A DNA stretch of 64,000 bases from a virus, in the IMG/VR virus record IMGVR_UViG_3300017991_000052; one strand, 5' to 3'. A model generated the notes under the pieces. That model saw only the letters and a list, made by a program, of their open reading frames with translations. It had not been told where the DNA came from and ran no database searches. The position numbers were made by a program, and so were the translations under genes. Below, piece by piece: positions 1-25,063 of this stretch (within the stretch, counting starts at the first letter, position 1; each line of letters starts with the position of its first letter).

Positions 1-227
1 AATTATTAGTTGAGAAATCTAAGGGGCCATGGAAGAAAGGTAAGAAAGGTCCAGTAACTAAAGAGCAAAAATTGAAAGATGCTGCTGTGAATATTTACTA
101 TCATCAATATCGACAAAAGGATAATTACGATATAATAAGAAAACTTCTTGGGAAAGAAAGTGTTAGCATTGAAGATGTAGAAGACATTTTAAAAATACCA
201 AAGCGCTCAAGAATATTAGAAAGGTAA
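1..227 (+). CDS. Partial small basic protein (5' truncated), ...LLVEKSKGPWKKGKKG...RILER*
   Basis: Frame open from position 3 to TAA at 225-227; not in ORF track; carries VEK|S motif followed by K/G-rich segment like the next gene. Confidence 0.7.
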   Translation, partial: LLVEKSKGPWKKGKKGPVTKEQKLKDAAVNIYYHQYRQKDNYDIIRKLLGKESVSIEDVEDILKIPKRSRILER

Positions 228-231
228 TACA

Positions 232-978
232 ATGACTGTTAATAAATATCATTTAGATGGTGATAATAAGAAATTTGAAAAAGGTACTGGAAAACCCTGG
301 GCCCTTCAACAAAGAAAACCTGGTAAAGGTAAAGGTAAAAAAGGAAAAGAAGTTAAATATGATGATGTTATATTAGAAGAAATAATGAATGATATTGATA
401 CTTCAAAAAAGACATTGACTAGTTTACAAGGGCAAGAGTTAAATCATTATATCTCAGCTGGATCTTCTAATCTTTATGAAAAGAGAGCAATTCAATATCA
501 TGTTGGCCAAATAATTTCAGCTCCTGTTCCAGCATTATCTGAAGCACGAGAAAAATTAAAAGAGATCGATAAAAAATATACTGTAAGAATTGCAGAAGAT
601 ATGGGAAAAAATGAATCTAGAAATCTTGCTAGATTACATCATGATAAATTAAAAGAACAAAAAAGAATTGTATTTGGGGTACAACAATATTTAGATCTAA
701 CTCCAGAAAAGCAAGATGTAGGAGATAAGTATCTTGATGTAGCTAAAAAATTAGGGATTAAACCAGAACCAATGGGAACAGCTCCATTTATTTTTCATAA
801 AAAAAATGGGGATACTCTTACTTTTGGTTATGTTGATGGCCCATTAGGTTGGGATATTGTTAATAGAGAAGGAGAAATAAAAGATTCAAATCAGATGGAA
901 GATGAATATGCATCAGCCGAAGATCAAGTAGCTTTTATGAGAGATGTTGCTGATACATATGGATTTGAGCTTAAATAA
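232..978 (+). CDS. Hypothetical protein, candidate head-internal protein
   Basis: 248-aa ORF; leader MTVNKY...FEK|G followed by K/G-rich stretch. Confidence 0.7.
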   Translation: MTVNKYHLDGDNKKFEKGTGKPWALQQRKPGKGKGKKGKEVKYDDVILEEIMNDIDTSKKTLTSLQGQELNHYISAGSSNLYEKRAIQYHVGQIISAPVPALSEAREKLKEIDKKYTVRIAEDMGKNESRNLARLHHDKLKEQKRIVFGVQQYLDLTPEKQDVGDKYLDVAKKLGIKPEPMGTAPFIFHKKNGDTLTFGYVDGPLGWDIVNREGEIKDSNQMEDEYASAEDQVAFMRDVADTYGFELK

Positions 979-1367
979 TGTATTATCAATGTGTTGGTAA
1001 AACTCATTATTACGAGAAGCTGGGCTTCCCTCAGTATAAGGGACCAAATAACGTAAGTAAGTTTATTGACTATAAAGATTGGATGCCAGGGTACAAAAAG
1101 ACTCCATCAGAATTAGGTGTACCATTTCCGCCTCCAGAACAATTTAGAGATGCTGATGGCAGATTATGGTTATTAAGACATGGCGATATTGGAGTTGATG
1201 GCAATAAACCATTTACAAGTGAAGCTAGACATGGTGCAGAAGCAGTTGGGGATTGGAGTGGATTTAAGCCTCAAGTAAAAGAAAAAACATATGATCCGAA
1301 TTTAAGTTGGGCTTTTCAATGGGGAAATACATGGCAAAGCCTTAAACGAAGGGGATTTTTAAAATGA
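978..1367 (+). CDS. Hypothetical protein, paralog of 2653-3060
   Basis: Overlapping stop/start (TAATG); shares YE.xGFP.Y and SLK.RG motifs with 2653-3060. Confidence 0.7.
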   Translation: MYYQCVGKTHYYEKLGFPQYKGPNNVSKFIDYKDWMPGYKKTPSELGVPFPPPEQFRDADGRLWLLRHGDIGVDGNKPFTSEARHGAEAVGDWSGFKPQVKEKTYDPNLSWAFQWGNTWQSLKRRGFLK

Positions 1368-1606
1368 AAAAATATAAACTGCCAATAAAAAAGAATATAG
1401 ATAAACTTCCTATAGAAAAAGGTGGACCAGGATCTGGTCGAAGAAAAGGAAGTCGACTTGATGTTGGAATGCCATTAGTTAATGTTAATGGTAAACCTGG
1501 AGAAATTGTTGGTGGTAATAGTAGACATGGTTATTGGGTAAGATTCCATGGTAGTGGAGAAGAAAAACGTTATCCTGCTAAAAAAATTCATGTTATGAGA
1601 GACTAG
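1364..1606 (+). CDS. Small basic protein with KLPIEK-GGPGSG motif and SH3-like beta C-terminus
   Basis: ATG overlaps upstream stop; motif shared with 1767-2282. Confidence 0.7.
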   Translation: MKKYKLPIKKNIDKLPIEKGGPGSGRRKGSRLDVGMPLVNVNGKPGEIVGGNSRHGYWVRFHGSGEEKRYPAKKIHVMRD

Positions 1607-1766
1607 TTAAAATAGTATTAACAATTAATTTAAATTTGTTATTATCGCTATAAGAAAAGTTAATAAGTATTATATCCTCTTTCATTCTTCTGTTAATCAT
1701 AAAAAATTGCCTTCGTAGATAACATTTTTGTGGTAATAATTATATATATAGAGCAATAGCTTTCAA

Positions 1767-2282
1767 ATGAAAAAAACATTAATTTTAGATAATTTAGGTC
1801 GTATACAAGGGAGGTTGGAACCTCGCGGAGGTGACGTGTATGTGTATGACCGCAATGGTGTGTATCAAGGAAAAACTTCTGGCGGAAAAACATATAACAA
1901 GAATGGGATTATTATTGCTATTGGAGAAATCCCTGGTATTTTAATAAAATCAAAAAATAAATTACCAATTCAAAAAGGCGGTCCAGGATCTGGTAGAAAA
2001 AAATTAACTGAAAAAGATAAGAAACTTATAGCGTTAGCAAAAAAAGTAATTAAACCAGGTATGGATGCGTCTGATATAGTTGCTGCTTTAAAACAAGAAG
2101 GAGTAAGCCCTACTGAATTTTGGAAACCAAAAGATTATGAAACATGGGCTGAAAGAACTGGAAAAAAACATAAAGAAGCAAATAAAAATAGATCACAAGA
2201 AGATATTCAAAAAGAAGAAGAAAAGTATAAGAAACAACAAGAGAATGAAGATAAGACAAAGCGTAGATATGATATTGGCTAA
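1767..2282 (+). CDS. Hypothetical protein: beta-rich N-domain plus KLPIQK-GGPGSG basic domain
   Basis: 171-aa ORF; repeated YD.NG..G hairpin motifs, then GGPGSG motif. Confidence 0.7.
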   Translation: MKKTLILDNLGRIQGRLEPRGGDVYVYDRNGVYQGKTSGGKTYNKNGIIIAIGEIPGILIKSKNKLPIQKGGPGSGRKKLTEKDKKLIALAKKVIKPGMDASDIVAALKQEGVSPTEFWKPKDYETWAERTGKKHKEANKNRSQEDIQKEEEKYKKQQENEDKTKRRYDIG

Positions 2283-2302
2283 ATAAAAAAGGAGAGTGTT
2301 AC

Positions 2303-2653
2303 ATGAAAAAGTTACCTATTCTAAAAGCTAAAAAGAAACCTACGCGTTCTCAAGCAAAACAATCTGGAACGTATATCGGATTTGATAAATTGGTTGAGAA
2401 GTTAAAAAGAAAAAAAGGTATTTCAGAAAATTCATTGGAAAAAGCTTTGGATATTTTGAAAGTAGAGGATTTCTTCGAAGAACTTTGGGTAAAATCCATT
2501 GATGGTGTTATTATGAACACACCAGAATTTATGGAAGAAATTGGGAAGGCAAAGGTTTATAATCCCGCTGGATTAGCTGCATATATTGGAAGAAAAAAGT
2601 ATGGAAAGAAAAAGTATCAAGAAATGGCAGCTAAAGGAAAGAAGAAAAAATAA
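2303..2653 (+). CDS. Small basic phage protein (NPAGLAAYIGRKKYG motif)
   Basis: GGAG SD; motif recognised from small phage head-region proteins. Confidence 0.7.
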   Translation: MKKLPILKAKKKPTRSQAKQSGTYIGFDKLVEKLKRKKGISENSLEKALDILKVEDFFEELWVKSIDGVIMNTPEFMEEIGKAKVYNPAGLAAYIGRKKYGKKKYQEMAAKGKKKK

Positions 2654-3060
2654 TGGGGATGTTAGGTGAACAACCTACTCAACCAGTTTCAGCATTTGGG
2701 TGGTGGGTTGGTAAAACAGGGAGCCAGCTTATTCAATCGCTTGTTCCTCAAATGCCAAAGCCACCACCAAAATTAAATATAAACTTAACATATGATAATG
2801 TAAAACAAGTAAATCCAACAACACATGATTGGTCATATCCTCAAACATATAAATCTGGATCTGCTGAAATAAAAGCATATGAAGATAGAGGATTTCCACG
2901 TTATGATAATAATGGACAGCCAACAAAAGAATTTGCGAATTGGAATGGATTTAATTGGAAAGATTATCCAAATAGATTTGAACCGCCAAGAGAAAAAACA
3001 GCGACTACACATGGGGCAAGATTAGATTCTTTAAAAGAACGAGGCTTAATACAATCATGA
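2653..3060 (+). CDS. Hypothetical protein, paralog of 978-1367
   Basis: Coupled stop/start; shared motifs. Confidence 0.7.
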   Translation: MGMLGEQPTQPVSAFGWWVGKTGSQLIQSLVPQMPKPPPKLNINLTYDNVKQVNPTTHDWSYPQTYKSGSAEIKAYEDRGFPRYDNNGQPTKEFANWNGFNWKDYPNRFEPPREKTATTHGARLDSLKERGLIQS

Positions 3061-3485
3061 CATTAAAGATACATAAAGATTTAAGAATATGGAAGAAGCC
3101 AGACAAAAGAGCTTCTGAATATGCATCAGATCAGGGATTAGAATATTCTTCTAAAGATCCTGCGCCAAATCAATGGATTAGAAAAAACATTTTAGATAAA
3201 GTGGTTTATTGGATTGATACAGTTCATGAACCCGGTTCTCAAGAGGGGTATAGAACCGCCTTTAATGAATTAACTAATTATGCTATACCCCTTGGGGATA
3301 TTAAATTAAATATTGAATCATATATAGCACAAACAAAGATTAATAGAAAAGAATCAAAAGTAGAACCAACAAAAGATAATTTTAAGTATTATGATAATGA
3401 ACTTAAAGCTTTAGAAAATGTATTATTGTTGGTGAACGATAAGATCCCACCAGAAGAACGAGATCGCCTATTTACTTTAGGTTAA
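3057..3485 (+). CDS. Hypothetical protein
   Basis: ATGA overlap with upstream gene. Confidence 0.7.
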   Translation: MTLKIHKDLRIWKKPDKRASEYASDQGLEYSSKDPAPNQWIRKNILDKVVYWIDTVHEPGSQEGYRTAFNELTNYAIPLGDIKLNIESYIAQTKINRKESKVEPTKDNFKYYDNELKALENVLLLVNDKIPPEERDRLFTLG

Positions 3486-3493
3486 GGAGAAAT

Positions 3494-4081
3494 ATGACTA
3501 TCGCTAAATATACATTACATAATAATTTATTAGAAAAAATTGAAAACAATATTAATAAAACTATTGATATTAGCATGTGGGATCCCAAAAGAGATAATAT
3601 AGAAAATCATACAGATATAGATCCTGATATTGCAGATAAAATGCCATTTAAAGTTGGCGATTCTCGACAATTATTAGATAATAAAGTACATACTGATTTA
3701 TCAATTGATGAACAATTGCCAATAAGAAATAAAATAATTGTTATTATAAATGATGCTTTACAGACCGCAGATCACGATTCAAACGAAAGTAAAAGACAAC
3801 AAATATATAATTTAGGAATTAAAGAAGCTCTTACAGCATCAATAGAGCATATTAAGAGTGGAGTGAATTTATATGAATTAGCAGATTATTATAAAAAATT
3901 AGCATTTAAATACAAAAATATGTTAATTGATGAACCAGATACAGAAGAGTTAGAGTACCCACAAACACGATTCAAAGGAAGTGCTAGTGGGTTTTTTAAT
4001 TTATACCAGCTAATTGAATATAAATTAGCTGAAGAAACGATGACAAAATATAAACAAAATCTCGTCCCAGTGGTGAGATAA
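3494..4081 (+). CDS. Hypothetical protein with MTIAKY leader
   Basis: AAGGAG SD; 195 aa. Confidence 0.7.
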   Translation: MTIAKYTLHNNLLEKIENNINKTIDISMWDPKRDNIENHTDIDPDIADKMPFKVGDSRQLLDNKVHTDLSIDEQLPIRNKIIVIINDALQTADHDSNESKRQQIYNLGIKEALTASIEHIKSGVNLYELADYYKKLAFKYKNMLIDEPDTEELEYPQTRFKGSASGFFNLYQLIEYKLAEETMTKYKQNLVPVVR

Positions 4082-4096
4082 AAAAGGAGTGCAAAA

Positions 4097-4576
4097 ATGA
4101 AAGTGACGGAATCATATAGTAGCCAACCATTATTGAGACCAACAGAAAGATTTAAAAGTGTAGAAGAAAAGCTAGAGGAATTAAAACAAAACTTTTCTCA
4201 CAATGCTGTGAAAGTAGATTTTTTAAGAAAGTCTGATGGATTTAATTATGTATTAGGTTATGTTGGCTTAACCGAAGATAATGCAGAATGGAGAATATGG
4301 AAATCTATTGGTAATATTTCTAAAAGTGATGAATATCTTCATACATTTAAAAATGCCGATGAAGCACGAGTAATGTTTAAATCGGTAATTGAAGAAGATT
4401 ATACATCAAAGTCAATAGAAAAGGATCAAGTAGAAAAAGCAAGAAAAAAGAAAAAAAAGAAAAAAGATAATAATTTCGTATCTAAAGATAGTGACTATCC
4501 TGCGGCACAAGATAATTCTAGTGATGTTGAAGCAGCAAAAAATGCCGAGGAAAAAGGAACATTGGCAAAAGAATAA
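4097..4576 (+). CDS. Hypothetical protein rich in xKS/xKA motifs
   Basis: AAGGAG SD; FKS, RKS, WKS, SKS, EKA motifs. Confidence 0.7.
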   Translation: MKVTESYSSQPLLRPTERFKSVEEKLEELKQNFSHNAVKVDFLRKSDGFNYVLGYVGLTEDNAEWRIWKSIGNISKSDEYLHTFKNADEARVMFKSVIEEDYTSKSIEKDQVEKARKKKKKKKDNNFVSKDSDYPAAQDNSSDVEAAKNAEEKGTLAKE

Positions 4577-4602
4577 TAATTTCCCAACAAGGAGGAACAA
4601 CG

Positions 4603-5028
4603 ATGAAAGTCTATCGCGCAAAAGATAATGGTAGTAAAGTTACCGTTCAACAATTTGACGGAGCTTGGAACTACAATGATAAAAAAGAGAAAAGTATTGA
4701 ACAGTACGCTGGAGATGGTAGTTGGAAATGGCTTCATGGAGTAAAACTTATGGTTGATCCAGCTGGTTTAGTTATAAAAGGACCAGATATTTTTATTAGT
4801 AGAAAATATGATGATGTAAAAAATCTATCATATGCCGATACATTTACTGTAATGCGTTCAGTTGCAAGAGCAACTGGTGCAACTAATAAAGCTATTGAAA
4901 TGCCAGAAGATAAAGAAGCAAAAGAAAAAGCATGGCAAGAAGCAGTTGATTTAATGGATACATTAATTGAAACTAGAAAGCAACATGAAAAAGATAAAAC
5001 AAAGTATTTAACTCCAAGTAACGAATAA
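4603..5028 (+). CDS. Hypothetical protein
   Basis: AAGGAGG SD; 141 aa. Confidence 0.75.
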   Translation: MKVYRAKDNGSKVTVQQFDGAWNYNDKKEKSIEQYAGDGSWKWLHGVKLMVDPAGLVIKGPDIFISRKYDDVKNLSYADTFTVMRSVARATGATNKAIEMPEDKEAKEKAWQEAVDLMDTLIETRKQHEKDKTKYLTPSNE

Positions 5029-5041
5029 AGAAGGTGAAGCA

Positions 5042-5485
5042 ATGAGTAAGTTTGAAGCATTTAAATGTTTAGTTTGCGGGAAGAAATTTAAAAAGCCAAA
5101 AGAAGAGTGGGTTAAACTTAATGAGGAATTAAAAAAAGTAAATGACCCTGATAAAGTAAAGAATAAAATTGAATGTCCACAATGTAGAAATACAAAATTA
5201 CAGCATTTAGTTAAAAAGAATATTAATATATTTAAATCTTTATTTTCTTTTATAAATAAAATAATTGATTTAAATTTAAGTATGTTGGGTAATTTAGCTG
5301 CAAATACTTTGATTTTTATTAATAGACAAGTTGGTAGAAATATAGATATTGTAATTGAATATGTAATTGGATTTGTTGGCATATTAGTAGCTACTTATCT
5401 TACTAGTCAATATTTAAAAATAGATGTGTTGTGGAGTCTTGGAGTTGTATTTCTATTTTTCATAATTAAGAAACTATTAAAGTAA
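5042..5485 (+). CDS. Zn-ribbon membrane protein
   Basis: CLVC...CPQC plus two C-terminal hydrophobic helices. Confidence 0.65.
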   Translation: MSKFEAFKCLVCGKKFKKPKEEWVKLNEELKKVNDPDKVKNKIECPQCRNTKLQHLVKKNINIFKSLFSFINKIIDLNLSMLGNLAANTLIFINRQVGRNIDIVIEYVIGFVGILVATYLTSQYLKIDVLWSLGVVFLFFIIKKLLK

Positions 5486-5489
5486 AGTA

Positions 5490-5570
5490 TAGGCTAGGGT
5501 CGCTCCCGAAAAGAGACATTCTGAGTCTCCTGCCTAACTATAAAACCAGAAAATAACTACGGAGGTTATT
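5490..5570 (+). ncRNA. Structured cis-RNA (three-way junction plus SD-sequestering hairpin) upstream of free-standing endonuclease
   Basis: TAGGC/GCCTA, GGG/CCC and GAGAC/GTCTC stems; AATAAC/GTTATT hairpin encloses GGAGG. Confidence 0.6.
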
Positions 5571-5573
5571 AAT

Positions 5574-6254
5574 ATGCCAATTGGAGTATATAGAAAAACT
5601 AAAAAACATAAACAAAAAATCGGTAAAGCGAATAAAGGTAAAATTTCTTATAAAAAAGGAAGAACTTATGAAGAGATATATGGAAAAGAAAAAGCAAAAC
5701 AAATAATTAAAAAAATAAGTAAAACGAAAATAAAATATTATAAAACTCATGATGCCCCTATGAAAGGTAAAAAGCATTCAGAAGAAACAAAAGAAAAATT
5801 TAGAAAAATAAAATTAGGAAAGAAAACTGGAAGAAAACCAATGTTAGGCAAAAGTCATTCTAAAAAAACTAAACAATTATTAAGTGAAAAATTTAAAGGG
5901 AGAACATTTTCTAAAGAAGCAAAAAAGAAAATGAGAATATCAGCAATCAAAAGGATAGAACGAAATCATGGCATTGCACATCCTAACTATAATTCTAAAG
6001 CATGTGAATTTTTCAAAACATACGATAAAAAACATAATACTAATGGACAATATGCAACTAATGGTGGGGAATATTATATAAAAGAACTCGGATACTATCC
6101 CGATTACATAAACTTTGATAAGAAAATAATTATAGAATATGATGAGAATTATCATAAAGGTCAAATTAAAAAAGATAAAGGGCGTCAAATGGAAATACAA
6201 AAATTATATCCAGATTTTGAATTTGTAAGAGTTAAAGAAAGTAAAGGAGTGTAA
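5574..6254 (+). mobile_element. Free-standing homing endonuclease (NUMOD3 repeats plus PD-(D/E)xK-like domain)
   Basis: GKKHSEETKEK and GKSHSKKTK NUMOD3 repeats; YYPDYIN..IIIEYDENYH nuclease motif. Confidence 0.8.
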
Positions 6255-6256
6255 AC

Positions 6257-7909
6257 ATGGCATTTCGCGATGGATTTAATCAAACTATGAATAAAGCTTT
6301 TGGGCATTCACAAGTGTCTGCACGCCCATCTATTGTTACATCTGGAAGTTCAATGGAAAAGTCCATGCGAGCCTATTTACCTACATACCGTGATGATGCT
6401 CGATATGGACAACCACCAGAAGAAGGCTTTGAATACAAACTTAGAACTTCTTTATTGCGTAAAATGTATGAAAGAAATGTTGTTGTTCGTGCGGCAATAG
6501 ATACTATTATTAATGAAGTTGTATCTGCAAAATTTGAAATTAAACCAATAAATCCAGATGAAAAAGTTAGTCCAGAAAAAAAATCACAACAAGATAAAAA
6601 AATAAAAGAAATAGAAGATTTTTTTAATCATCCAAATGAAAATAGAGAATCATTTCGTATTTTATTAGAAAAAATGATGTGGGATCTTCTAGTATTTGAT
6701 GCTGGTGTCATAGAAAAAGTTAGAAATGTTGGCGGAGATAAATTAAAAGAAATTTATGCGATACCTGGAGATACAATAAGAATTAAAGTAGATGAACATG
6801 GTAAAATATTAGGGTATTGGCAAGTATTAGATGGTACAAAACGACCACCTAAGTTTTTTAAATCAGATAATATTATATATATCGTAATGAATCCGCGTTC
6901 TCATACACCTTATGGATTTTCTCCATTACATACATTGGAGAATATGGTAACAGCTTTCTTATATTCAGAACATTACAATGTTAAATATTTTGAAAATAAT
7001 GCTACACCAAGGGGAATATTAGAACTTGGAGCTATTAATGAAGGTCAATTAGATAGATTTAGAGAATATTGGAGGCAAGAAAATCTTCAGCAACCACATC
7101 GTGTAATGGTTGTTTCCAATCCGCATGCACACGAAGGCAAAGGCGGAATCAAATGGATTCCTTTAGCGTTAAATGCTAAAGATATGGAGCTAATGCAATA
7201 TTTAAATTGGTTAATGAAAATGATTCTTATGGTCTTTGGCGTTACGCCATCCGAGGTCGGCTTTGCGGACGAACTTAGAGGTGCACCTGCTCTTGGCCAA
7301 GTCCTCCAATCTCAAGCTTTTAAAAATAAAGCAATCTTTCCTATGATGGATAGAATTGCAAGATATTTTACTGAAGAAATTATTGTTTCTGAATTTGGGG
7401 CTAAAGATTTAATATTTGATTTTATTGAAGAACAATCAATTCAAGAACAATTACAAAAAGCCCAATTAGATTCATTGTTAATTCAATCTCAAATAATGAC
7501 TGTTGAAGAAGTTAGAAAAGACCGTGGATTAGAAATTAAAAAAGGAAGAGGAGTTCCTGGTCTTGAGGGCATTCTCGCTGGATTGCAAGGTAAACCTGCG
7601 CCTGGTGAAGAAGCAGTAATGGGAATTGAAAACGAACCAACAATTGTAGACACCGCATTTAAGCAGTTAAAAGAAGCAGTATATAATCATTTAGGTCTTG
7701 ATGAAAGTGTCGAGTCGAAGCCTGGCGTGCCTGAGACATTGGATGGCGCGTACAATGAGCTAAAAGATTCGATTGAAGCATATATTGGGCAGAAGAAAAC
7801 TGGAGAAACTGGAAGTCTTATTGAAGATGCTTTTCATCGATTAGTTAGAGAAATTAAACTTATGACTACAATGAAGCATATAGATGGTATTTTAAGTGGG
7901 AACCGCTAA
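6257..7909 (+). CDS. Portal protein (HK97-like)
   Basis: VRAAIDTI, YGFSPL, YFENNATPRGIL, VFGVTPSEVG and MTVEEVRK portal motifs. Confidence 0.93.
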   Translation: MAFRDGFNQTMNKAFGHSQVSARPSIVTSGSSMEKSMRAYLPTYRDDARYGQPPEEGFEYKLRTSLLRKMYERNVVVRAAIDTIINEVVSAKFEIKPINPDEKVSPEKKSQQDKKIKEIEDFFNHPNENRESFRILLEKMMWDLLVFDAGVIEKVRNVGGDKLKEIYAIPGDTIRIKVDEHGKILGYWQVLDGTKRPPKFFKSDNIIYIVMNPRSHTPYGFSPLHTLENMVTAFLYSEHYNVKYFENNATPRGILELGAINEGQLDRFREYWRQENLQQPHRVMVVSNPHAHEGKGGIKWIPLALNAKDMELMQYLNWLMKMILMVFGVTPSEVGFADELRGAPALGQVLQSQAFKNKAIFPMMDRIARYFTEEIIVSEFGAKDLIFDFIEEQSIQEQLQKAQLDSLLIQSQIMTVEEVRKDRGLEIKKGRGVPGLEGILAGLQGKPAPGEEAVMGIENEPTIVDTAFKQLKEAVYNHLGLDESVESKPGVPETLDGAYNELKDSIEAYIGQKKTGETGSLIEDAFHRLVREIKLMTTMKHIDGILSGNR

Positions 7910-8111
7910 AGATAAAATTGCTCCTGAAACTACGGGCAAAAAATTAGATCCAGAAATCAAAAGAGTATATTCAACTCTAAACCAATCAAAGAAACGTGAA
8001 AGATATGATAAGCCTCTACAACAACTAGAGACTTGGTATTATGATCTTCTAATAGAGAAGATGAAAAAAGTTAAAGAAAGGTTTAATGAGGTGTATAAGG
8101 AAGGTAAATAA
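7896..8111 (+). CDS. Small helical protein, possibly the detached N-terminal part of the MuF-like protein
   Basis: GTG start overlapping portal; coupled to the next gene. Confidence 0.5.
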   Translation: MGTAKDKIAPETTGKKLDPEIKRVYSTLNQSKKRERYDKPLQQLETWYYDLLIEKMKKVKERFNEVYKEGK

Positions 8112-8941
8112 TGAAATTTGATTTTACTTTTCCAAATACTTTGCTTTTAGCTTCACTATTTTTCCTATTTATCGACGATATTTTATCAGCAACTGACGAT
8201 CTTCCAGATAAAACTCTTTTATTAGGTGCTCAGTTATTACATGAGCAAGTAAAGCCGGGAACGACAATGGATATTAAAAGAATATCTGAAGAAGCTGGCC
8301 CCACATTAGAGAAATTAAAATTAAAACATTATTGGAATGTTCAAGGTTTAGCAGATAATTCTCGAAATAAGTTAATGGAAGTTATAGTTGGTGGTAAAGA
8401 AAAAGATCTTCCACCTGGAGAAATTGCTAAACAAATAAATACAGAAGTATTTGAGAAATTTTCCAATAAAGCATTATTAACAACAAGAACTTTTATTACG
8501 GAAGCTGAGGCTGAAGGTAGAGTTCTTTATGCTAAAATGCGCGAAAAAGATACTGGCAAAAAACAATATTTACAAGCAAATTCTGCACCAGATGCTTGTC
8601 CTTTATGTAAAACATATTTAAATTTCATCGATGGAAAAGGTTCTATAATAGAAGGAAAGATATTTCCAGTCGATTATTTAGCGAAACAAAAAAGTAATTT
8701 AAGTAAAAAACCTAAAGATATTAAACCAAATATTCCAGTTCATTTTAATTGTCGTTGTATTTGGTTACTTGTTTCAGAAGAAAAATATAAATCTCAACAA
8801 GACAGAATTAAAAAAGGTGAATTGAAAAATAGAAAATTAGATGAAGTTACTTCTATATTAAAAAAGCATGACAAAAATTTTAAGAAGACTATTGATGAAG
8901 TAACATTGGAAAAAACATTTGAATTAGAATTTACTTACTAG
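8111..8941 (+). CDS. Head morphogenesis protein (MuF/SPP1 gp7-like)
   Basis: Follows portal; ACPLC ... PVHFNCRC signature. Confidence 0.85.
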   Translation: MKFDFTFPNTLLLASLFFLFIDDILSATDDLPDKTLLLGAQLLHEQVKPGTTMDIKRISEEAGPTLEKLKLKHYWNVQGLADNSRNKLMEVIVGGKEKDLPPGEIAKQINTEVFEKFSNKALLTTRTFITEAEAEGRVLYAKMREKDTGKKQYLQANSAPDACPLCKTYLNFIDGKGSIIEGKIFPVDYLAKQKSNLSKKPKDIKPNIPVHFNCRCIWLLVSEEKYKSQQDRIKKGELKNRKLDEVTSILKKHDKNFKKTIDEVTLEKTFELEFTY

Positions 8942-8950
8942 GGGAGAATT

Positions 8951-17164: not shown

Positions 17165-19389
17165 TGCTTATAAATAAATCATTAATAGACGACTTAAGTG
17201 AAGGAGTCGTTTATGAACTTGAAAAAGCGATTCCTGGCATGCCTAAATTACCAAAACCTGGTAAAATAGGCGGACAACCTGATTTAGATAAGAAAAAAGT
17301 TGGAGATATCGTTCAAAGACACGGGAAAGATTATAGAATTACAGCTATAAACCCAACAAAAACTGGGTGGGGACGTTTTAAATTAGAAGCAGTTACTAAA
17401 AAACCAGAAGATGAAGCTGCTAAAAGAGAAGCGCGTCCAGAAGAAACTGGAAAACCTACTGCTATTAAACAAATGGGACAACAAGTAAAAGATCTTTATT
17501 CTAAAGTAAAAGAAAAATTAGGGGAAAAACAAAAACCAACTGTAACACCGCCTAAAGAAAAACCAAAAGAAAGACCAATGATCCCTAAAACATCGGCAGA
17601 AGTACAACAAGCTGATATAAATACTTTAAAAGGGACAATGGATTATCTTTCTAATTTAGAAAATAAAATGAATGCTACAAAAACATCTCCAGAACTGGCA
17701 AAATTAAAACAAGATGTTGTAGATAATTATATAGTTAAAATGAGAGATAAACTTAAACAAAAAATGGGATCTCGTTTTGTTGAATACAAACCAACTGGAA
17801 AACCAGGAGCAGCAGCTGCAGCTGTGAGTTATGAAGATTTACAAAATAAAGTTAAACAATATGAAGATAAAATGTCTGCTGGTCAATATTTAGATCCTCT
17901 TGAAAATAAAGAATATAAGAGAATGAGTAAACAGCTTAATGATATAGAAGATAATAGAATTAAAGCAATGCAAGCTGCTAATCAAAAAATGATGCAAGAA
18001 GAACGTGCTAAAAAAGCAAAAGAATTTGGTGAGAAATTAGCACGTGGTGAAAAACCATTTCCTGAAAGAACTGATAAACATAAAATTGAAGAAGTTAAGT
18101 TAACAGATAAAGATAAACAAGAAGATCTTAGCACCTTTGTTATGACTCGTTATAGAGATGATACTGGAAAATCATATTCATTAGATCAAGTACAAGCTAA
18201 TAATAAAAAAGTTGTAGATAGTTTTGTAAAACAAAATGGGTTAAAGATTCCTAAAGATTCTATTAATTATGTTAAAGGTGAAATTAGAATACCATTTAAT
18301 TCAAAAACTATTAAAGAAATAAGTGGAACACTAAAAGAAAATTATGGATCAACTGATAATGATTATATATCTTTTGAAAAAGGTACTCCTGGTGAAGATT
18401 CAATTTTAAAGATCAAAAAAGTTGGCGGAATTAATTGGGAAATTAAACCATTACCAGAACAATCATTAGCTGATTCAATAAATACAGTTTCTGATATGTA
18501 TGATAAACAAGCAAAATCTGGAAAGAGAAAAGAATACAGATTTTTATTTGCTCCAGATCAAGCATTATTTAATCCGCCAGATTCTCCTGAAGGTCAATCA
18601 ATGACATTTATTCAAGGTGGTATGAGATCTGGTAAAGGATTAATGTTTGGTACAATGATGAATCAAGCTCTTGGAAGTGCTGATGGATCTGTTGTTAAAT
18701 TTTATAATTTTGATCCAACTGGTGCTTTTTGGAATGACATGAAAGATGTTAATCCAAATGTTATTAAACAAATGGATAAAAAAGGATTAGTTGGTCATAA
18801 TGGTGTTGCAACAGATAATATAGTTAAGATGCCACCAGATAAACAAGCTTCTGCTGTTAAATCATATGTAGATAATTTTGTTAATAAATATAATGAAGTT
18901 TATAGCGAACGAGCAGCAATGATGGAACATTATGGCGTTGGTCATATTGGGAAAATAAAAGATCAACAAATTCCTCAAGCAGTATTTAATTTTGATGAAA
19001 TGCAACAATTTGAAGGTATTATTCAAAAAAATACTGCATTATCTAAAGGTGAGAAAAAAGAATTATTAAATAAAATAACTGGAGTAATGGCATCACAAAA
19101 AACAACAGGAAAAAAACTTGGTATAACAATGAATGTTGTTTGTCAAAATGGATTTGATAGTGATCAAATGACTAGTATTTCTGGTGCAGCTGGAAATCAT
19201 TTATTATCATTAGATGGAAAAGCAGATTTAAGATCTTTTGGCAGTGCTAGAGGATTTACAAGTGCAGTGACAAGGGCAAATATTGGAAATGCAATAGTTG
19301 CTGAAACAAGAAAGCCAGATCAGAATCCTAGACTATTAAATCCAATAGTTCCTGGTGTTGGTACAGCAACTGCATTAAAAGGTAAATAA
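17164..19389 (+). CDS. Large protein with C-terminal FtsK/SpoIIIE-like P-loop domain
   Basis: FIQGGMRSGKG (Walker A), NFDPTG, VFNFDE (Walker B) and GKKLGITMNVVCQ follow the FtsK motif order. Confidence 0.7.
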   Translation: MLINKSLIDDLSEGVVYELEKAIPGMPKLPKPGKIGGQPDLDKKKVGDIVQRHGKDYRITAINPTKTGWGRFKLEAVTKKPEDEAAKREARPEETGKPTAIKQMGQQVKDLYSKVKEKLGEKQKPTVTPPKEKPKERPMIPKTSAEVQQADINTLKGTMDYLSNLENKMNATKTSPELAKLKQDVVDNYIVKMRDKLKQKMGSRFVEYKPTGKPGAAAAAVSYEDLQNKVKQYEDKMSAGQYLDPLENKEYKRMSKQLNDIEDNRIKAMQAANQKMMQEERAKKAKEFGEKLARGEKPFPERTDKHKIEEVKLTDKDKQEDLSTFVMTRYRDDTGKSYSLDQVQANNKKVVDSFVKQNGLKIPKDSINYVKGEIRIPFNSKTIKEISGTLKENYGSTDNDYISFEKGTPGEDSILKIKKVGGINWEIKPLPEQSLADSINTVSDMYDKQAKSGKRKEYRFLFAPDQALFNPPDSPEGQSMTFIQGGMRSGKGLMFGTMMNQALGSADGSVVKFYNFDPTGAFWNDMKDVNPNVIKQMDKKGLVGHNGVATDNIVKMPPDKQASAVKSYVDNFVNKYNEVYSERAAMMEHYGVGHIGKIKDQQIPQAVFNFDEMQQFEGIIQKNTALSKGEKKELLNKITGVMASQKTTGKKLGITMNVVCQNGFDSDQMTSISGAAGNHLLSLDGKADLRSFGSARGFTSAVTRANIGNAIVAETRKPDQNPRLLNPIVPGVGTATALKGK

Positions 19390-19391
19390 TA

Positions 19392-20150
19392 ATGGCAGAA
19401 TGTACTTCAACTAGAGTTAATGCGATCAAAGGCATGGTTGATAGAGGTGGTGTTTACGTCACTATCTATAATGCTGAACCTTGTACTGGTGATCAAATAA
19501 CAGTTAATAATGAACTTCAACAGTTTAATTATGAATTAACTGGCACTAATAGCGTGATCCTGTATGGGTATGAGAGTCTTATTGGGGCTAAAGTAGATTG
19601 GGATCTAAGTGGAACTGAAGTAGTATCTGGATCCATGGTAGTAACAGATGCGTCTGGAGTTACTGGATATAATGAAAATATTGATTATACAATGGATTAT
19701 GAAAATGGCACTTTAACTAGAACAGATACTGGATTATTACAAGACTTATCAATTATAAAAATAAATTATACATGGCATTTTGATTGTGTAGATGAAAAAA
19801 CTGGATCTCCGTTTAGATATTGTACAACATGTATAGATCCAGATCAAGGTAATTTTCCAACAGGTGTAATATATACAAATTCGACTAGAATGAAAGCTTT
19901 ATTTCATATTCCAAATTATAATTCTCCTTTTGAAAAAATTGGCGTATGGAAATTAGGTGATGGTGTAGTAACAGTACCTTATGATGTTCAAGTAAATGCT
20001 AAAAATCATGAAGACGGTGGATTTTTCTGTCAAGATAAAATAAAAATTGATGGACAACCAGGAATTTGGAAAGTTATGTCTCTCCCACAGACCATACAAA
20101 TGGGGGAATTCTTGGGTAAAAGAATTCATGTCAGAAAGATAGATTTTTAA
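19392..20150 (+). CDS. Putative head closure/neck protein with inserted beta domain
   Basis: Position in neck module; C..C..CxxC motifs; DYTMDYENGTLT insert. Confidence 0.5.
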   Translation: MAECTSTRVNAIKGMVDRGGVYVTIYNAEPCTGDQITVNNELQQFNYELTGTNSVILYGYESLIGAKVDWDLSGTEVVSGSMVVTDASGVTGYNENIDYTMDYENGTLTRTDTGLLQDLSIIKINYTWHFDCVDEKTGSPFRYCTTCIDPDQGNFPTGVIYTNSTRMKALFHIPNYNSPFEKIGVWKLGDGVVTVPYDVQVNAKNHEDGGFFCQDKIKIDGQPGIWKVMSLPQTIQMGEFLGKRIHVRKIDF

Positions 20151-20151
20151 C

Positions 20152-20709
20152 ATGACTATATATAAATACGTAGTAGATGAAAATATAAATAAAGCAAAAA
20201 AGCCAGTTAAAGTTAGATCAAAAACTGGTAAAGTGTTTACTCAAATGAGAGAAGAAGGTAAAGGAGCTAAAACAAAAACTCCTAAAATTCTTTATCATGT
20301 AGCATTTACTGAAAAAGTTCCTAAGATAAAAGAAGAAGGAGTTAGACCATTACAACCAACAAATTGGGTTCAAGCAGGTAATAAGAAAAGATATGGTGGT
20401 GGAGAAGTATATGCGTTTGAACATCCAGAAGATGCTTTTCGATGGGCAGCTAAAATGGATTGGGAATTTAATAAAGAGATGGGCAGTGGAAAAATTTCTG
20501 TAGTTAGAGCTAAAAATGATGAAGAATGGGAAATAGATGAAAATGATCCAATGAGTCAAGCCGGTTCAAAAGGTAATTGGCTTAAACATGATTTAGGAAT
20601 CAAAAAAGAAAATATACAAGATGCTGTACCATTAACAATAGATATTACAAGAAAAATAACTGCAGGAGATACTGAAAAATTAGATTCATTATTTAAAAAG
20701 GAAAAATAA
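20152..20709 (+). CDS. ADP-ribosyltransferase-fold (KptA/Tpt1-like) protein with basic leader
   Basis: LYH.......KI..EG.RP ... VYAF....A pattern typical of H-class ART domains. Confidence 0.6.
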   Translation: MTIYKYVVDENINKAKKPVKVRSKTGKVFTQMREEGKGAKTKTPKILYHVAFTEKVPKIKEEGVRPLQPTNWVQAGNKKRYGGGEVYAFEHPEDAFRWAAKMDWEFNKEMGSGKISVVRAKNDEEWEIDENDPMSQAGSKGNWLKHDLGIKKENIQDAVPLTIDITRKITAGDTEKLDSLFKKEK

Positions 20710-21167
20710 TGGCTTTAAAAGATAATGATGCGTTACAGGCTAGATTTGATAATATTGTTCATGAAGAAATGGAACAAGGAGTTGGAATTGTAGTTGAAAC
20801 AATTCAAGAAGTTGGGATAAGACGAAGAACTGGTAATTTATTAAATTCAGTTAGATATGTTGGTGAAGTTGAAGCGATGACACATAGAATTGTAGTTGGT
20901 GCTCCTTATGCATCATATTTAAATAGAGGATATGGCGAATTTAGTTTGGTTCCGGGAAGATTGGGAAAAACAATTCCATTAAGAGATGCAACTGGTAAAT
21001 TAATATTTCGTAGAGTATCAACAAGGCCAACATCAACAGGAAAAAATTGGACACATCCAGGATATGAAGGAAAAAATTTCGTGGATATAGCAAAAGAAAA
21101 AATTTATAAAAATATTGTTGTTCGTGTTGAACAGTTTTTAAATGATATTGATCCGGAGGATATGTAA
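20709..21167 (+). CDS. Neck/tail completion protein (HK97 gp10-like)
   Basis: RTGNLLNS, APYASYLNRG and HPGYEGKNF motifs. Confidence 0.75.
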   Translation: MALKDNDALQARFDNIVHEEMEQGVGIVVETIQEVGIRRRTGNLLNSVRYVGEVEAMTHRIVVGAPYASYLNRGYGEFSLVPGRLGKTIPLRDATGKLIFRRVSTRPTSTGKNWTHPGYEGKNFVDIAKEKIYKNIVVRVEQFLNDIDPEDM

Positions 21168-21643
21168 TGAGAAAAGCCTGGAATAAAGGGTTAGTAGTAG
21201 AAAATTATCATACAGATGAAGTTAAAAAAAGAATTGGTGAAGCTTCAAAAAAAAGATGGGCAAAAACAAGTTATAGAAATATGATATATAAATCTATGCG
21301 TAATGCATTTAATAATAAATGTACTTCTATTGAAATAAAAATACAAAAAGCATTGAAAGATAAAAACATTGATTTTGAAATCAATAAGCCATTAAGTGGA
21401 TTACCAGATATATTTATAAAACCTAATATTTGTATTTTTGCAGATGGTGATTATTGGCATTGCAATCCAATTAAATATCCTAATGGACCAATAAATAATT
21501 ATCAAAAGACAAGAATAGAAAAAGATAAAAGAATTAATAGAATATTGAAATCAAATAAGTATAAAGTTTTAAGGTTTTGGGAGAATGATATAAAAAATAA
21601 TTGGGGTAAATGTGAAAAAAAATTAATGGGGGCTATCTACTAA
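21167..21643 (+). mobile_element. Free-standing Vsr/DUF559-like endonuclease
   Basis: AWNKGL, TSIEIKI, PDIF..CIFADGDYWH..KDK..YKVLRFWE. Confidence 0.82.
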
Positions 21644-22460: not shown

Positions 22461-23879
22461 ATGAGTCCTACGTTTGATGGAAAGTTTTATAGGGTTCCAC
22501 AAGTAGCTGTAAAAACTGATATTTCAGGTCTTACGTCTACTGCTTTGGCACCCGGAGGAATTGTTGCGATGATAGGATCTGCTGAGGGTGGAGCACCGAA
22601 TCTAGTAACTCGTTTTACTGATCCGGTAGAAGCAACTAATACATTTAGAGGCGGGAATTTACTTGAAGCAGCTCAAGTCGCATGGCAACATGGCGCACAA
22701 GTGATCTATATGACAAGAATTGGAACAGCTGATCAAGCTACATTGACATTAGTAGATGGAGCTAGTGCAGATGTTCTTCAAGTCGATTCAATAGATTATG
22801 GTGATTATGTAAATGAAATTAAAGTAAAAGTAGAAGATGGGTCTGTAAGTGGTAAAAAAGTTACTGTACAATTGTATGATAGTTTAACAAACAGAACAAC
22901 TGTGGAAGTTGGAGATAATTTGGCAGATGCAATATCAATTGCTAATTATTTTAATGGTATTACAGAAGGGGTTGAACCATCTGCACTTGTTACGATGACC
23001 TCTATTGTAAGTGGCGGAATTCCTGAAAATATTGGATATACTAATTTAAGTGGTGGAGATAATGGTACGCCATTAACAGCTACTGATTGGTCAAATGCAT
23101 TAGATCTGTATGCAACTGAATTTGTAAATATTTTACATCCTGCAGGAAGTACAGATGCAACAGTTCACGCGTTATTTCAAACACACGTTGAAACATATTC
23201 TAATCAAAAATTAGAAAGAACAGCGGTTGTTGGAGCGGCGGCTGAAGATCCAATTGGAGATATAAGTACACCAGATTCGTTAGTATACAGAGCATATAAT
23301 ATGAATTCTGAAAGAATGGTATTAGTTGCGCCTGGAACTGATGGAAGATCTGGAGCTTATACAGCTGCAAAGATTGTTGGAAGAGCAGCTGGAGTTGATG
23401 TTGCAACACCATTAACTTATCAGACAATCACGGCTACAAGTATTGCCGAAAAATATACAGCGTCTCAAAAAGACACATTAGTACAATATGGAATTCTTGC
23501 AATTGAAGAAGTACCTCAAGGTCGAAGAATCGTAAGAGGTATTACAACTGTTCAAGATCCATCTCAAACGACTGAAGATCCTTTTAAAGAATATAGTGTA
23601 TTGAGAATTAGAGATTATGTTAATTCTAATGTAAGATCAATTCTTGAATCTACTTATATTGGCAAGAAAGGTGTTTTTGGAGTTGAGAGTCAAATTCAAG
23701 CTACTACAGCTTCAGTGCTTGGAAGATTAAAGGAAGCTGAAATCGTTCTTGGTTATAGAAATATCAGAGTTACAAAAGATCAGAACAATCCAAAAGTTTA
23801 CTATGTAAACTATCAAATTGCTCCGATCAGTCCGATTAACTGGATATTCGTGACTACAGAATTTGTTAACACAATTTAA
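22461..23879 (+). CDS. Contractile tail sheath protein
   Basis: IGSAEGG.PN, F.GG.L, LSGGDNG, IVRGITT, RIRDY, YIGK and PISPINWI motifs. Confidence 0.92.
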   Translation: MSPTFDGKFYRVPQVAVKTDISGLTSTALAPGGIVAMIGSAEGGAPNLVTRFTDPVEATNTFRGGNLLEAAQVAWQHGAQVIYMTRIGTADQATLTLVDGASADVLQVDSIDYGDYVNEIKVKVEDGSVSGKKVTVQLYDSLTNRTTVEVGDNLADAISIANYFNGITEGVEPSALVTMTSIVSGGIPENIGYTNLSGGDNGTPLTATDWSNALDLYATEFVNILHPAGSTDATVHALFQTHVETYSNQKLERTAVVGAAAEDPIGDISTPDSLVYRAYNMNSERMVLVAPGTDGRSGAYTAAKIVGRAAGVDVATPLTYQTITATSIAEKYTASQKDTLVQYGILAIEEVPQGRRIVRGITTVQDPSQTTEDPFKEYSVLRIRDYVNSNVRSILESTYIGKKGVFGVESQIQATTASVLGRLKEAEIVLGYRNIRVTKDQNNPKVYYVNYQIAPISPINWIFVTTEFVNTI

Positions 23880-23896
23880 GAAAAGGAGGTAGAGAA

Positions 23897-24496
23897 ATGT
23901 CTAATTTAATTGGTGCTCCGCTTACAGCGATTACAGCAACGCTTATGTTTTTTGGAAGACAAGTTGGCGAATTACAATCACTGTCATGGAATGAAAACAA
24001 TAATTATCGTAGATTGAGTTCTATTGGTAATGGCGTTGATGTTATTCATGTTCCAGGAGTATCCCAATATGATTTAACCGCAAGACGTGCTTTATTGGAA
24101 ACTGATCTAGTTTTAGATTTGTTATATACAATGAAGCAAGGGGATTTTGATGGTAAAACACCATTCGTTGGTAAAGGACCCAATCCCACAGATACAGCTT
24201 CATTAGTAGCTGCAACAGTAACACCTGAAGATTTAATTGCAGCAATTCTTGCTGGTGGCGGTGGAATTGATTTGGGAGATAAGATTGTAAACTTGTACTT
24301 TGATGTACAAGTACAAAATGCTGCTGGTGCTCCGCTCTTTACCTTCGAGGATGTTTCGTTAAACACGAGAAGAGCTACCCTTGATGTGGGTGGAGTTATT
24401 ATTATGAGTGATATAACAATGCTTGGTAGAAAGAAGAAAATTGCAGTTGATTCAAATAGAGCAGCTGAATTAACAAAAGCATTGCCATCAACTTAA
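23897..24496 (+). CDS. Tail tube protein
   Basis: Directly after sheath; G.QVGELQSL..E......IG...HVPG. Confidence 0.75.
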   Translation: MSNLIGAPLTAITATLMFFGRQVGELQSLSWNENNNYRRLSSIGNGVDVIHVPGVSQYDLTARRALLETDLVLDLLYTMKQGDFDGKTPFVGKGPNPTDTASLVAATVTPEDLIAAILAGGGGIDLGDKIVNLYFDVQVQNAAGAPLFTFEDVSLNTRRATLDVGGVIIMSDITMLGRKKKIAVDSNRAAELTKALPST

Positions 24497-24514
24497 TAAA
24501 AAAAGGAAAAATGA

Positions 24515-25063
24515 ATGCCGGGAATAATTGGAAATCCATTATCAGCTTTAACCGCAAGAATCCTATTTGATGGGACAGATGTCGGCACATTGCAAGAATT
24601 AACTGTTGAGGAAGATTTTAATGTTCGACAAGTTAATCAGATTGGTTCCAATATTCCCGCTGAATTTTTACCGGGAACACAGACTGGGAGAATAATTGCT
24701 GCTAGAGCAATGCTCGAAGGTGATTTACTTTGGGATAAACTTACTCCTAGCCTTGTTCCCGGGGCAGATTTAACGGAACTAATCAAAGGTGCTATAGATA
24801 ATAGTGGAGAATTAGAGCTTAATCCAGTATCAGATATTCTTGAACAAGCATATGATATTTATGAAGCTCTTTTTTTGGGGAGAGTTACTGGGGATAGAGC
24901 AACATTTGTAGTATATTTTAATGTTGAAATATTAGATCCAAATGATAATATAATTGCAAAATTTAATAAATGTACTTTAACAGCTAGAACATTATCAATA
25001 ACAATTGGTAATATAATAGTAATGCAAAATATAACAATGTTATTTGGAAGTAGGGAATATTAA
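24515..25063 (+). CDS. Tail tube paralog 2
   Basis: IG.PL.A.TA.I.F.G..VG.LQ.L motif shared with 23897-24496. Confidence 0.7.
   Translation: MPGIIGNPLSALTARILFDGTDVGTLQELTVEEDFNVRQVNQIGSNIPAEFLPGTQTGRIIAARAMLEGDLLWDKLTPSLVPGADLTELIKGAIDNSGELELNPVSDILEQAYDIYEALFLGRVTGDRATFVVYFNVEILDPNDNIIAKFNKCTLTARTLSITIGNIIVMQNITMLFGSREY

Follow-up and report, generated by a model that had tools for sequence, protein, structure and literature searches.

The window analysed here is a 64,000-nt stretch (bases 12592-76591) of the single-contig, 152,375-bp virus record IMGVR_UViG_3300017991_000052, the genome of an uncultured phage with 31% G+C, a CheckV completeness of ~85% and genes lying nearly all on one strand. 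It contains a head gene module in the order portal, protease(-scaffold) and major capsid protein, as in the HK97-type (Peptidase_S78) module (Table 1). Around these genes lie others whose products are unrelated for most of their length and yet share one of two short N-terminal leaders, both ending in a hydrophobic-x-Lys site (x, any residue). In the whole genome, 13 of the 230 predicted proteins carry an N-terminal leader and/or one of the conserved basic modules that usually follow it, and these are referred to as tagged below. A slash in a motif marks the putative scissile bond, with P3, P2 and P1 before it and P1' after it.

Table 1. Tagged genes, head genes and their neighbours. Positions are those of the window unless marked as genome coordinates (L034), which lie upstream of it.
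Feature	Position	Strand	Description
Actin-like protein	genome 1028-2044		full-length Pfam Volactin match, E = 2e-79
Papain-family cysteine peptidase (Peptidase_C1)	genome 3365-4237		PF00112, E = 4e-21; amid tagged genes
Terminase-like gene	genome 7957-9453		Walker A motif; no Pfam match
77-aa tagged gene (most of it)	1-227	+	starts 7 nt before the window; short leader ending V-E-K/S, then S-K-G-P-W-K-K-G-K-K
ORF 232, 248-aa tagged protein	232-978	+	type B leader, residues 1-17, ending F-E-K/G; then G-K-P-W..Q.R..G.G.G module
Small protein	978-1367		starts M-Y-Y-x-C-x-G-K; no leader of its own
ORF 1364, 80-aa tagged protein	1364-1606	+	tandem type A motifs (nt 1376 and 1403), then G-G-P-G-S-G-R-R-K-G
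ORF 1767	1767-2282	+	64-aa N-terminal domain, internal type A motif (nt 1959), G-G-P-G-S-G-R-K-K, variable C-terminal part
ORF 2303, 116-aa tagged protein	2303-2653	+	8-residue type A leader directly N-terminal
ORF 3494, 195-aa tagged protein	3494-4081	+	type B leader, conserved x-K/[TS] at ~residue 22; no basic module
Homing-endonuclease-like gene	5574-6254		NUMOD3-like basic repeats
Portal	6257-7909	+	phrog_12, E = 3e-56
MuF-like gene	8111-8941		separate ORF
Sigma-70 family protein	8951-10285	+	27-residue leader ending K-I-P-I-Y-K/T; sigma regions 2-4; C-terminal domain, residues ~317-444
Prohead protease (Peptidase_S78)	10285-12261	+	fused to a long scaffold-like tail
Major capsid gene, exon 1	12373-12783	+	phrog_10, E = 7e-25
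Group I intron	12784-13049		RF00028, 80.7 bits
HNH endonuclease-type ORF	13106-13774		NUMOD3-like basic repeats
Group I intron	14007-14235		RF00028, 63.6 bits
Endonuclease-type ORF	14371-15012		NUMOD3-like basic repeats
144-aa protein	15330-15764		last 50 residues match the RecA C-terminal domain (PF21096, 33.8 bits)
Head-tail adaptor	16022-17164		
741-aa protein, no assigned family	17164-19389	+	~21-residue N-terminal segment ending L-E-K/A, then G-M-P-K-L-P
ORF 20152, 185-aa tagged protein	20152-20709	+	type B leader, residues 1-14, ending I-N-K/A; then K-x-[RK]-V-x-S-x-T-G-K-x-F module
Homing-endonuclease-like gene	21167-21643		NUMOD3-like basic repeats

The leaders fall into two classes, type A (K-[LI]-P-I-x-K) and type B (M-T-[ILV]-x-K-[YHF]...[ILF]-x-K). 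Type A occurs at nt 1376, 1403, 1959, 2309 and 9014, each time in the coding frame, and is absent from the non-coding frames of the 64-kb window. All of the motif coordinates in the original prediction, which had proposed from this DNA alone that unrelated proteins share leaders ending in a capsid-type protease site, are correct. The slightly wider pattern [KER]-[LI]-P-I-x-K is found 7 times in the 152-kb genome, where residue shuffles predict 0.38 (none of 300 attains 7), and the type B start 6 times in the whole genome against an expectation of 0.25. All 13 tagged genes start between genome positions 2203 and 32743 and span 2203-33300, around the terminase-like, portal and head genes; the scan of the 230 predicted proteins placed none in the remaining ~120 kb. 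The system also extends past the edge of the window, as five of the 13 genes lie upstream of it, up to 10 kb away, and the first ORF of the window itself begins outside it. Most tagged-gene start codons have a Shine-Dalgarno-like sequence ahead of them, and the gene at genome position 2203 probably starts at an ATG 12 nt downstream of the predicted one, which would place its type A motif directly at the N-terminus.

An IMG/VR search with the portal gave six contigs with portals 59-71% identical to the query, one of which belongs to a complete 178-kb genome that was fetched whole (G001), and two pattern scans added two further contigs of the clade. The leader system is present in every relative, seven related contigs in all, and is often denser there, with ten tagged genes in 5 kb of L001 and about eleven in 6 kb of L020, and G001 has the same head-block layout of tagged genes. 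Two profile hidden Markov models (HMMs) trained on the leaders of the relatives only were run on the six-frame translation of our whole genome, and their best five type A and best four type B matches are exactly the reported sites; the type B leaders proposed earlier at ORFs 3494, 232 and 20152 are among those recovered. Across 47 non-redundant sites, for which Lys at P1 is fixed by the definition of the pattern, P3 is Ile in 37, Phe in 4, Leu in 4 and Val in 2, P2 is Glu in 27, and P1' is Gly in 22, Ser in 15, Ala in 6 and Thr in 3.

The segments past the site are basic, as had been noted before: the net charge of the following 20 residues averages +3.06, compared with -0.04 elsewhere in the same proteins, and their Gly plus Pro content is 22% compared with 9%. 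At least four conserved modules can be distinguished among them, namely G-G-x-G-S-G-R-[KR]-K, S-K-G-P-W-K-K-G-K-K, G-K-P-W..Q.R..G.G.G and K-x-[RK]-V-x-S-x-T-G-K-x-F-x-A-G. The second of these also stands behind leaders in L003, L004, L017 and G001, and genes related to ORF 20152 that carry the fourth are found in L020 and G001. The general layout is a leader, the hydrophobic-x-Lys site, usually a Gly/Lys/Arg-rich basic module, and a variable cargo domain. Once leader and module are removed, BLASTP matches of the cargo are to orthologues in other genomes only and none are found between tagged proteins, and since the cargo parts do not match one another a single paralogous family was rejected as the source of the shared N-termini.

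The breakpoints of homology between modules coincide with the motif. In one G001 gene, the 64-residue N-terminal domain known from ORF 1767 is joined through a type A motif to the cargo of ORF 2303: homology of ORF 1767 to this gene stops at the motif, and ORF 2303 is 61% identical to the part that lies past it. In the window the two halves are separate, such that the ORF 2303 cargo stands alone behind its 8-residue leader and the ORF 1767 N-terminal domain has another cargo attached to it. The ORF 232 cargo is preceded by the G-K-P-W module in our genome and by G-G-P-G-S-G-R-K-K in L001 (L001:4168). Orthologues of the sigma-70 family protein have leaders of 7 to 28 residues with different modules inserted behind them, and one orthologue has no leader and begins with Met followed by the P1' residue. 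The motif at nt 1959 had been taken for an N-terminal leader and is internal instead, at residues 65-70 of ORF 1767-2282, behind the conserved 64-residue domain. This domain (window 1767-1958) is Gly/Tyr-rich with the signature Y-V-Y-D-x-N-G-V-Y-Q-G-K-T-S; in three lineages it stands ahead of an internal type A motif, and its C-terminal cargo differs in each of them.

The tandem arrays of L001 and L020 and the clear shuffling of modules would also fit if the shared N-termini were without function of their own, either as relics of gene duplication or because recombination had reused a cassette junction at the DNA level or an element for translation start. We regard this as very improbable, because the motifs occur in the coding frame only, the peptide is kept over lineages with portals only 59-71% identical in which the cargo has diverged past BLASTP detection, and synonymous codons differ across the motif. 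The codons used for its Leu, Pro, Ile and Lys residues vary freely between copies, so that selection must act on the peptide, and a DNA-level element was rejected on the same ground. Leaders of the double-glycine bacteriocin type were also considered on inspection; their residue register does not match, and G-G is present in just one module of the four.

Beyond the clade, E-K followed by G-G-x-G-S-G-R is also present in viral contigs that are unrelated and have a G+C content of 30-55%. Two of them have it within the C-terminal extension of matches to phrog_1028, a head maturation protease, and in another it is in a gene adjoining an XkdF-type protease. Searches elsewhere yielded little. A tblastn search of GenBank phages with a 31-residue leader plus module gave no match, a word-indexed protein search with the 80-aa product of ORF 1364 returned only the query, and the pattern E-K-G-G-P-G-S-G-R-K had three uninformative matches in prokaryote genomes. 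Longer forms of a DUF5661 cargo were fusions to rubrerythrin and cupin, none of them linked to the head. A literature search for the G-G-x-G-S-G-R and K-G-P-W-K-K-G modules in several spellings found no relevant paper, and neither module is mentioned in a study of polyvalent proteins (PMC5512222).

The same type of site is found in the core head proteins. The prohead protease has an S78 domain at residues 17-165 (PF04586, 37.9 bits against a Pfam cut-off of 21) and also matches phrog_3244, a head maturation protease; its His68 and Ser118 are the same in all four lineages compared and are taken as the putative catalytic pair by position only. Directly after this domain, at the junction with the scaffold-like tail, L-E-K/A (residues 195-197) is invariant, and a hydrophobic-[SN]-K/[ST] site near residue 12-13 is conserved in relatives. 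By contrast, N-P-I-F-K/G at the very start of the protease, to which attention had been drawn earlier, is not conserved. The capsid protein begins M-x(1-2)-[LF]-E-K/A in four lineages with the site at residue 5-6; in the window this is M-G-L-E-K/A, as originally read, with a putative propeptide of 5 residues. The N-terminal segment of the 741-aa protein likewise ends in L-E-K/A as had been stated, and its G001 orthologue has I-L-K/A ahead of the same G-M-P-K-L-P. Portal N-termini, compared by eye in five lineages, have conserved [ILM]-x-K/[AS] sites near residues 13 and 34. At the level of motifs, a hydrophobic-x-K/small site is therefore common to the leaders, the capsid protein, the protease/scaffold junction and the portal.

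The original prediction had described the scaffold as rich in such sites and had proposed a comparison of head with tail proteins. The generic site occurs 14 times in the protease-scaffold protein against 4.1 expected (3.4-fold, z = 5.2; 0 of 200 shuffles reach 14), and in 44 tail, baseplate and fibre proteins it occurs 43 times against 44.6 expected, with no enrichment. Further elements of the scaffold-like tail (residues ~200-658) are kept in four lineages, namely a tract of strongly acidic character, a pair of zinc-ribbon units and the motif A-V-A-P-x-x-K-G-A-D-T, which is twice repeated. A predicted complex of the protease domain with the first 45 residues of ORF 1364 scored 0.02 against a mark of 0.32, which speaks neither for nor against binding.

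Short and strongly conserved leaders are also what would be expected of binding peptides. They might be uncleaved docking peptides for a common partner such as a chaperone, the ClpC-type unfoldase of the phage, a host factor or the scaffold, in the last case with no processing. We think this unlikely. An invariant Lys with a small residue behind it recurs at the capsid N-terminus and at the protease/scaffold junction, the homology breakpoints fall at that bond, and the sigma orthologue without a leader starts exactly at P1', all of which point to a scissile bond; the restriction of leader genes to the head block is a further argument against simple docking, and so is the finding that no protein of the leader set is among those sharing a C-terminal tag.

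Alternatively, the leaders could be cleaved for a purpose other than capsid loading, as propeptides with an activating or inhibitory role for assembly factors or toxic effectors acting in the producing cell, with the prohead protease or another enzyme, for example a papain-type one, as the processing activity. A Peptidase_C1 gene does lie among the upstream tagged genes. Papain-type enzymes favour a hydrophobic residue at P2, and in the leaders that residue is at P3. In addition, neither the complete genome G001 nor any other related locus encodes a homologue of the C1 peptidase, although the leaders are conserved in them; this peptidase is thus unlikely to be the processing enzyme and was rejected as such. 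The conserved basic modules past the site fit DNA-associated internal proteins. Scaffold-like proteins are also cut and then leave the head (PMC10052503), as this explanation would allow, and on the whole we consider it rather doubtful.

One of the proteins with a type A leader is the sigma-70 family protein, whose gene is the only sigma-70 gene found in the genome and whose stop codon overlaps the start of the protease gene. Its three sigma regions score above the Pfam cut-offs (region 2, 37.0 against 24; region 3, 30.3 against 25.3; region 4, 28.0 against 24.1) and its leader is conserved in orthologues. In the lineage of L004 and L006, both MuF and the sigma regions are missing and a 217-aa gene at the same place consists of the leader and the C-terminal domain. 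This domain (window 9900-10285) has the signature I-R-I-R-Q-R-D-P..F...W..E-A-K.W and belongs to no Pfam or PHROG family. It occurs in metagenomic proteins alone, behind sigma regions, next to ChaB, and fused to head maturation proteases (P0092, Pfam S78; P0043, phrog_80). An AlphaFold2 model of the domain from a four-row alignment had a mean pLDDT of 52.7, too poor for a fold search. Because the domain is fused to head proteases elsewhere, the leader is conserved and the L004/L006 gene retains just leader and domain, a head-associated sigma factor seems plausible from domain architecture.

We consider it probable that the leaders are N-terminal propeptides of head-internal proteins, removed after Lys by the Peptidase_S78 prohead protease. 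Cleavage, the protease responsible for it, packaging and ejection are all inferred. In this pathway the precursors would be made late, alongside the portal, the protease-scaffold and the capsid protein, and would be taken up by the procapsid. The S78 protease would then cut them after Lys, at the same type of site as in the capsid protein, its own scaffold tail and the portal, and the mature basic proteins would stay associated with the DNA, with which they would probably pass into the host. Since the type A leader is barely longer than the site itself, recruitment may occur through docking of the leader on the scaffold-fused protease; alternatively, the basic module may bind the conserved acidic tract of the scaffold, and these two appear to be the most economical routes.

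A more far-reaching version, which we offer as a tentative possibility, is a plug-and-play address system. One of two leaders would dock on the scaffold-fused S78 protease, which would cleave it behind the Lys; the new N-terminus would be supplied by one of four or more basic modules, and a dozen or more changing small effectors, including the only sigma-70 protein, would be loaded and delivered with the DNA. Host RNA polymerase would in that case be redirected by an injected rather than a newly made sigma factor.

Several points weigh against the propeptide interpretation. The bare hydrophobic-x-K-small site is common in this Lys-rich proteome, at about one per 150-200 residues in shuffles. 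The argument must therefore be built on position and conservation rather than on the site as such, and internal sites should not be over-read, including those listed within the sigma protein and within the first seven residues of the protease. Not all cases are short leaders, since the motif of ORF 1767 and of its orthologues comes after a 64-residue domain that looks folded. The basic module is lacking in ORF 3494 and in some tagged genes of G001, and 25-50 kb separate some tagged genes of that genome from its portal gene. The presumed specificity of the protease is deduced solely from the motifs themselves. Finally, the phage is not in culture and neither is any relative that was found, and GenBank phages gave no DNA match and only weak protein matches. 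The original interpretation consequently divides in two. A processing tag tied to the site type of the major capsid protein is well supported at the sequence level, and loading into the head with injection alongside the DNA is not supported to that degree, being suggested by gene position, by analogy with T4 and by the domain make-up of the sigma protein.

Other features of the region deserve mention in their own right. The major capsid gene is interrupted by two group I introns, each followed by an endonuclease-type ORF, and the introns of relatives are at other positions within the same gene. Homing-endonuclease-like genes, both free-standing and intron-borne, are scattered over the head/neck module and their positions vary among relatives. 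The 144-aa protein encoded after the capsid gene, with its RecA-like C-terminus, is kept at the same place in all relatives. The small M-Y-Y-x-C-x-G-K protein family occurs in the tagged-gene array of every relative, and a longer homologue of the Volactin-type actin-like protein is encoded in G001 (22614-24749).

If the propeptide interpretation is true, the leaders would constitute a second, independent load-then-cut tag beside that of T4, in the far more widespread HK97/S78 lineage and with Lys in place of Glu, and would provide a short, testable tag for placing foreign proteins in non-T4 capsids. The tags would mark candidate injected proteins in an uncultured clade, most of them of no known family and plausible as anti-defence or takeover factors. 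The tagged sigma protein with its head-protease-associated domain points to virion delivery of a sigma factor, of which we know of no described example. A cut after Lys is invisible to ordinary tryptic proteomics, and such systems may have been overlooked for this reason.

Among known systems, HK97 has a protease of the same family. The HK97 capsid protein is cut after Lys, as is that of Listeria phage A511, and HK97 shares with our phage an S78 protease and the portal-protease-capsid order. In HK97 too a short peptide signal brings a protein into the procapsid, but that signal is the C-terminal tail of the protease itself, and HK97 is not known to have a set of tagged accessory proteins. The HK97 capsid protein carries a 102-residue delta domain, whereas in our phage the site is preceded by only about 5 residues, and protease and scaffold form one polypeptide. 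The HK97 maturation protease gp4 and capsid protein gp5 were reportedly treated by Duda, Oh and Hendrix in 2013.

There are two further parallels. The adenovirus core precursors (pVII, pre-mu and others) are cut by the viral protease inside the particle, and are likewise basic, DNA-associated internal proteins with N-terminal propeptides that are processed by a virion protease at a short consensus. The enzyme there is an unrelated cysteine protease with another consensus in a eukaryotic virus, so that the resemblance is one of analogy only. In encapsulins, a short terminal cargo-loading peptide sends unrelated cargo into an HK97-fold shell. Those peptides are usually C-terminal and uncleaved, and the system involves no protease, DNA or ejection, whereas the tags described here are N-terminal, end in a protease-site-like motif and are accompanied by an S78 protease.

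In MuF-fused polyvalent and toxin proteins, the cargo domains are part of one polypeptide with a MuF (SPP1 gp7-like) head domain (PMC5512222). This is not the arrangement here, where the MuF-like gene (8111-8941) is a separate ORF and the tagged proteins are encoded by separate small genes. In the phiKZ-like giant phages, exemplified by SPN3US with its prohead protease gp245 and motif A-x-E (PMC10052503, PMC7411985), many head proteins, including the portal and internal or ejected proteins, likewise have N-terminal propeptides that are cut by one self-cutting prohead protease. The SPN3US propeptides range from 20 to 254 residues (PMC10052503). Unlike the leaders described here, they are mostly 111-254 residues long, share no single short leader and have Glu at P1, and they belong to a different phage lineage.

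The nearest functional parallel is with T4, where a capsid targeting sequence of 10 residues, with a gp21 site at its end, brings internal proteins into the prohead and is cut off afterwards (PMC9026906); it is found on IPI, IPII, IPIII and Alt, and gp21 is the prohead protease (Mullaney and Black 1996; PMC9026906). Both systems have a short N-terminal leader common to unrelated, mostly basic proteins, which ends in a head-protease site with a hydrophobic P3 and a charged P1; in both, the capsid and scaffold proteins have the same type of site and the cargo genes vary between relatives. They differ in that P1 is Lys here and Glu in T4 ([LI]-x-E), and in that the protease here is of the Pfam Peptidase_S78 (HK97) type and fused to the scaffold, whereas that of T4 is of the gp21 type. 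Two leader classes coexist here, one of just 7-8 residues, and at least four conserved basic modules past the cut site are swapped between cargos. Removal of the leader is established in T4, whereas the present system is known from its sequence. Because the protease found here is not the Glu-specific, gp21-type enzyme that defines the T4 system, the leaders and their cargo are a functional analogue of that system and not a member of its family.

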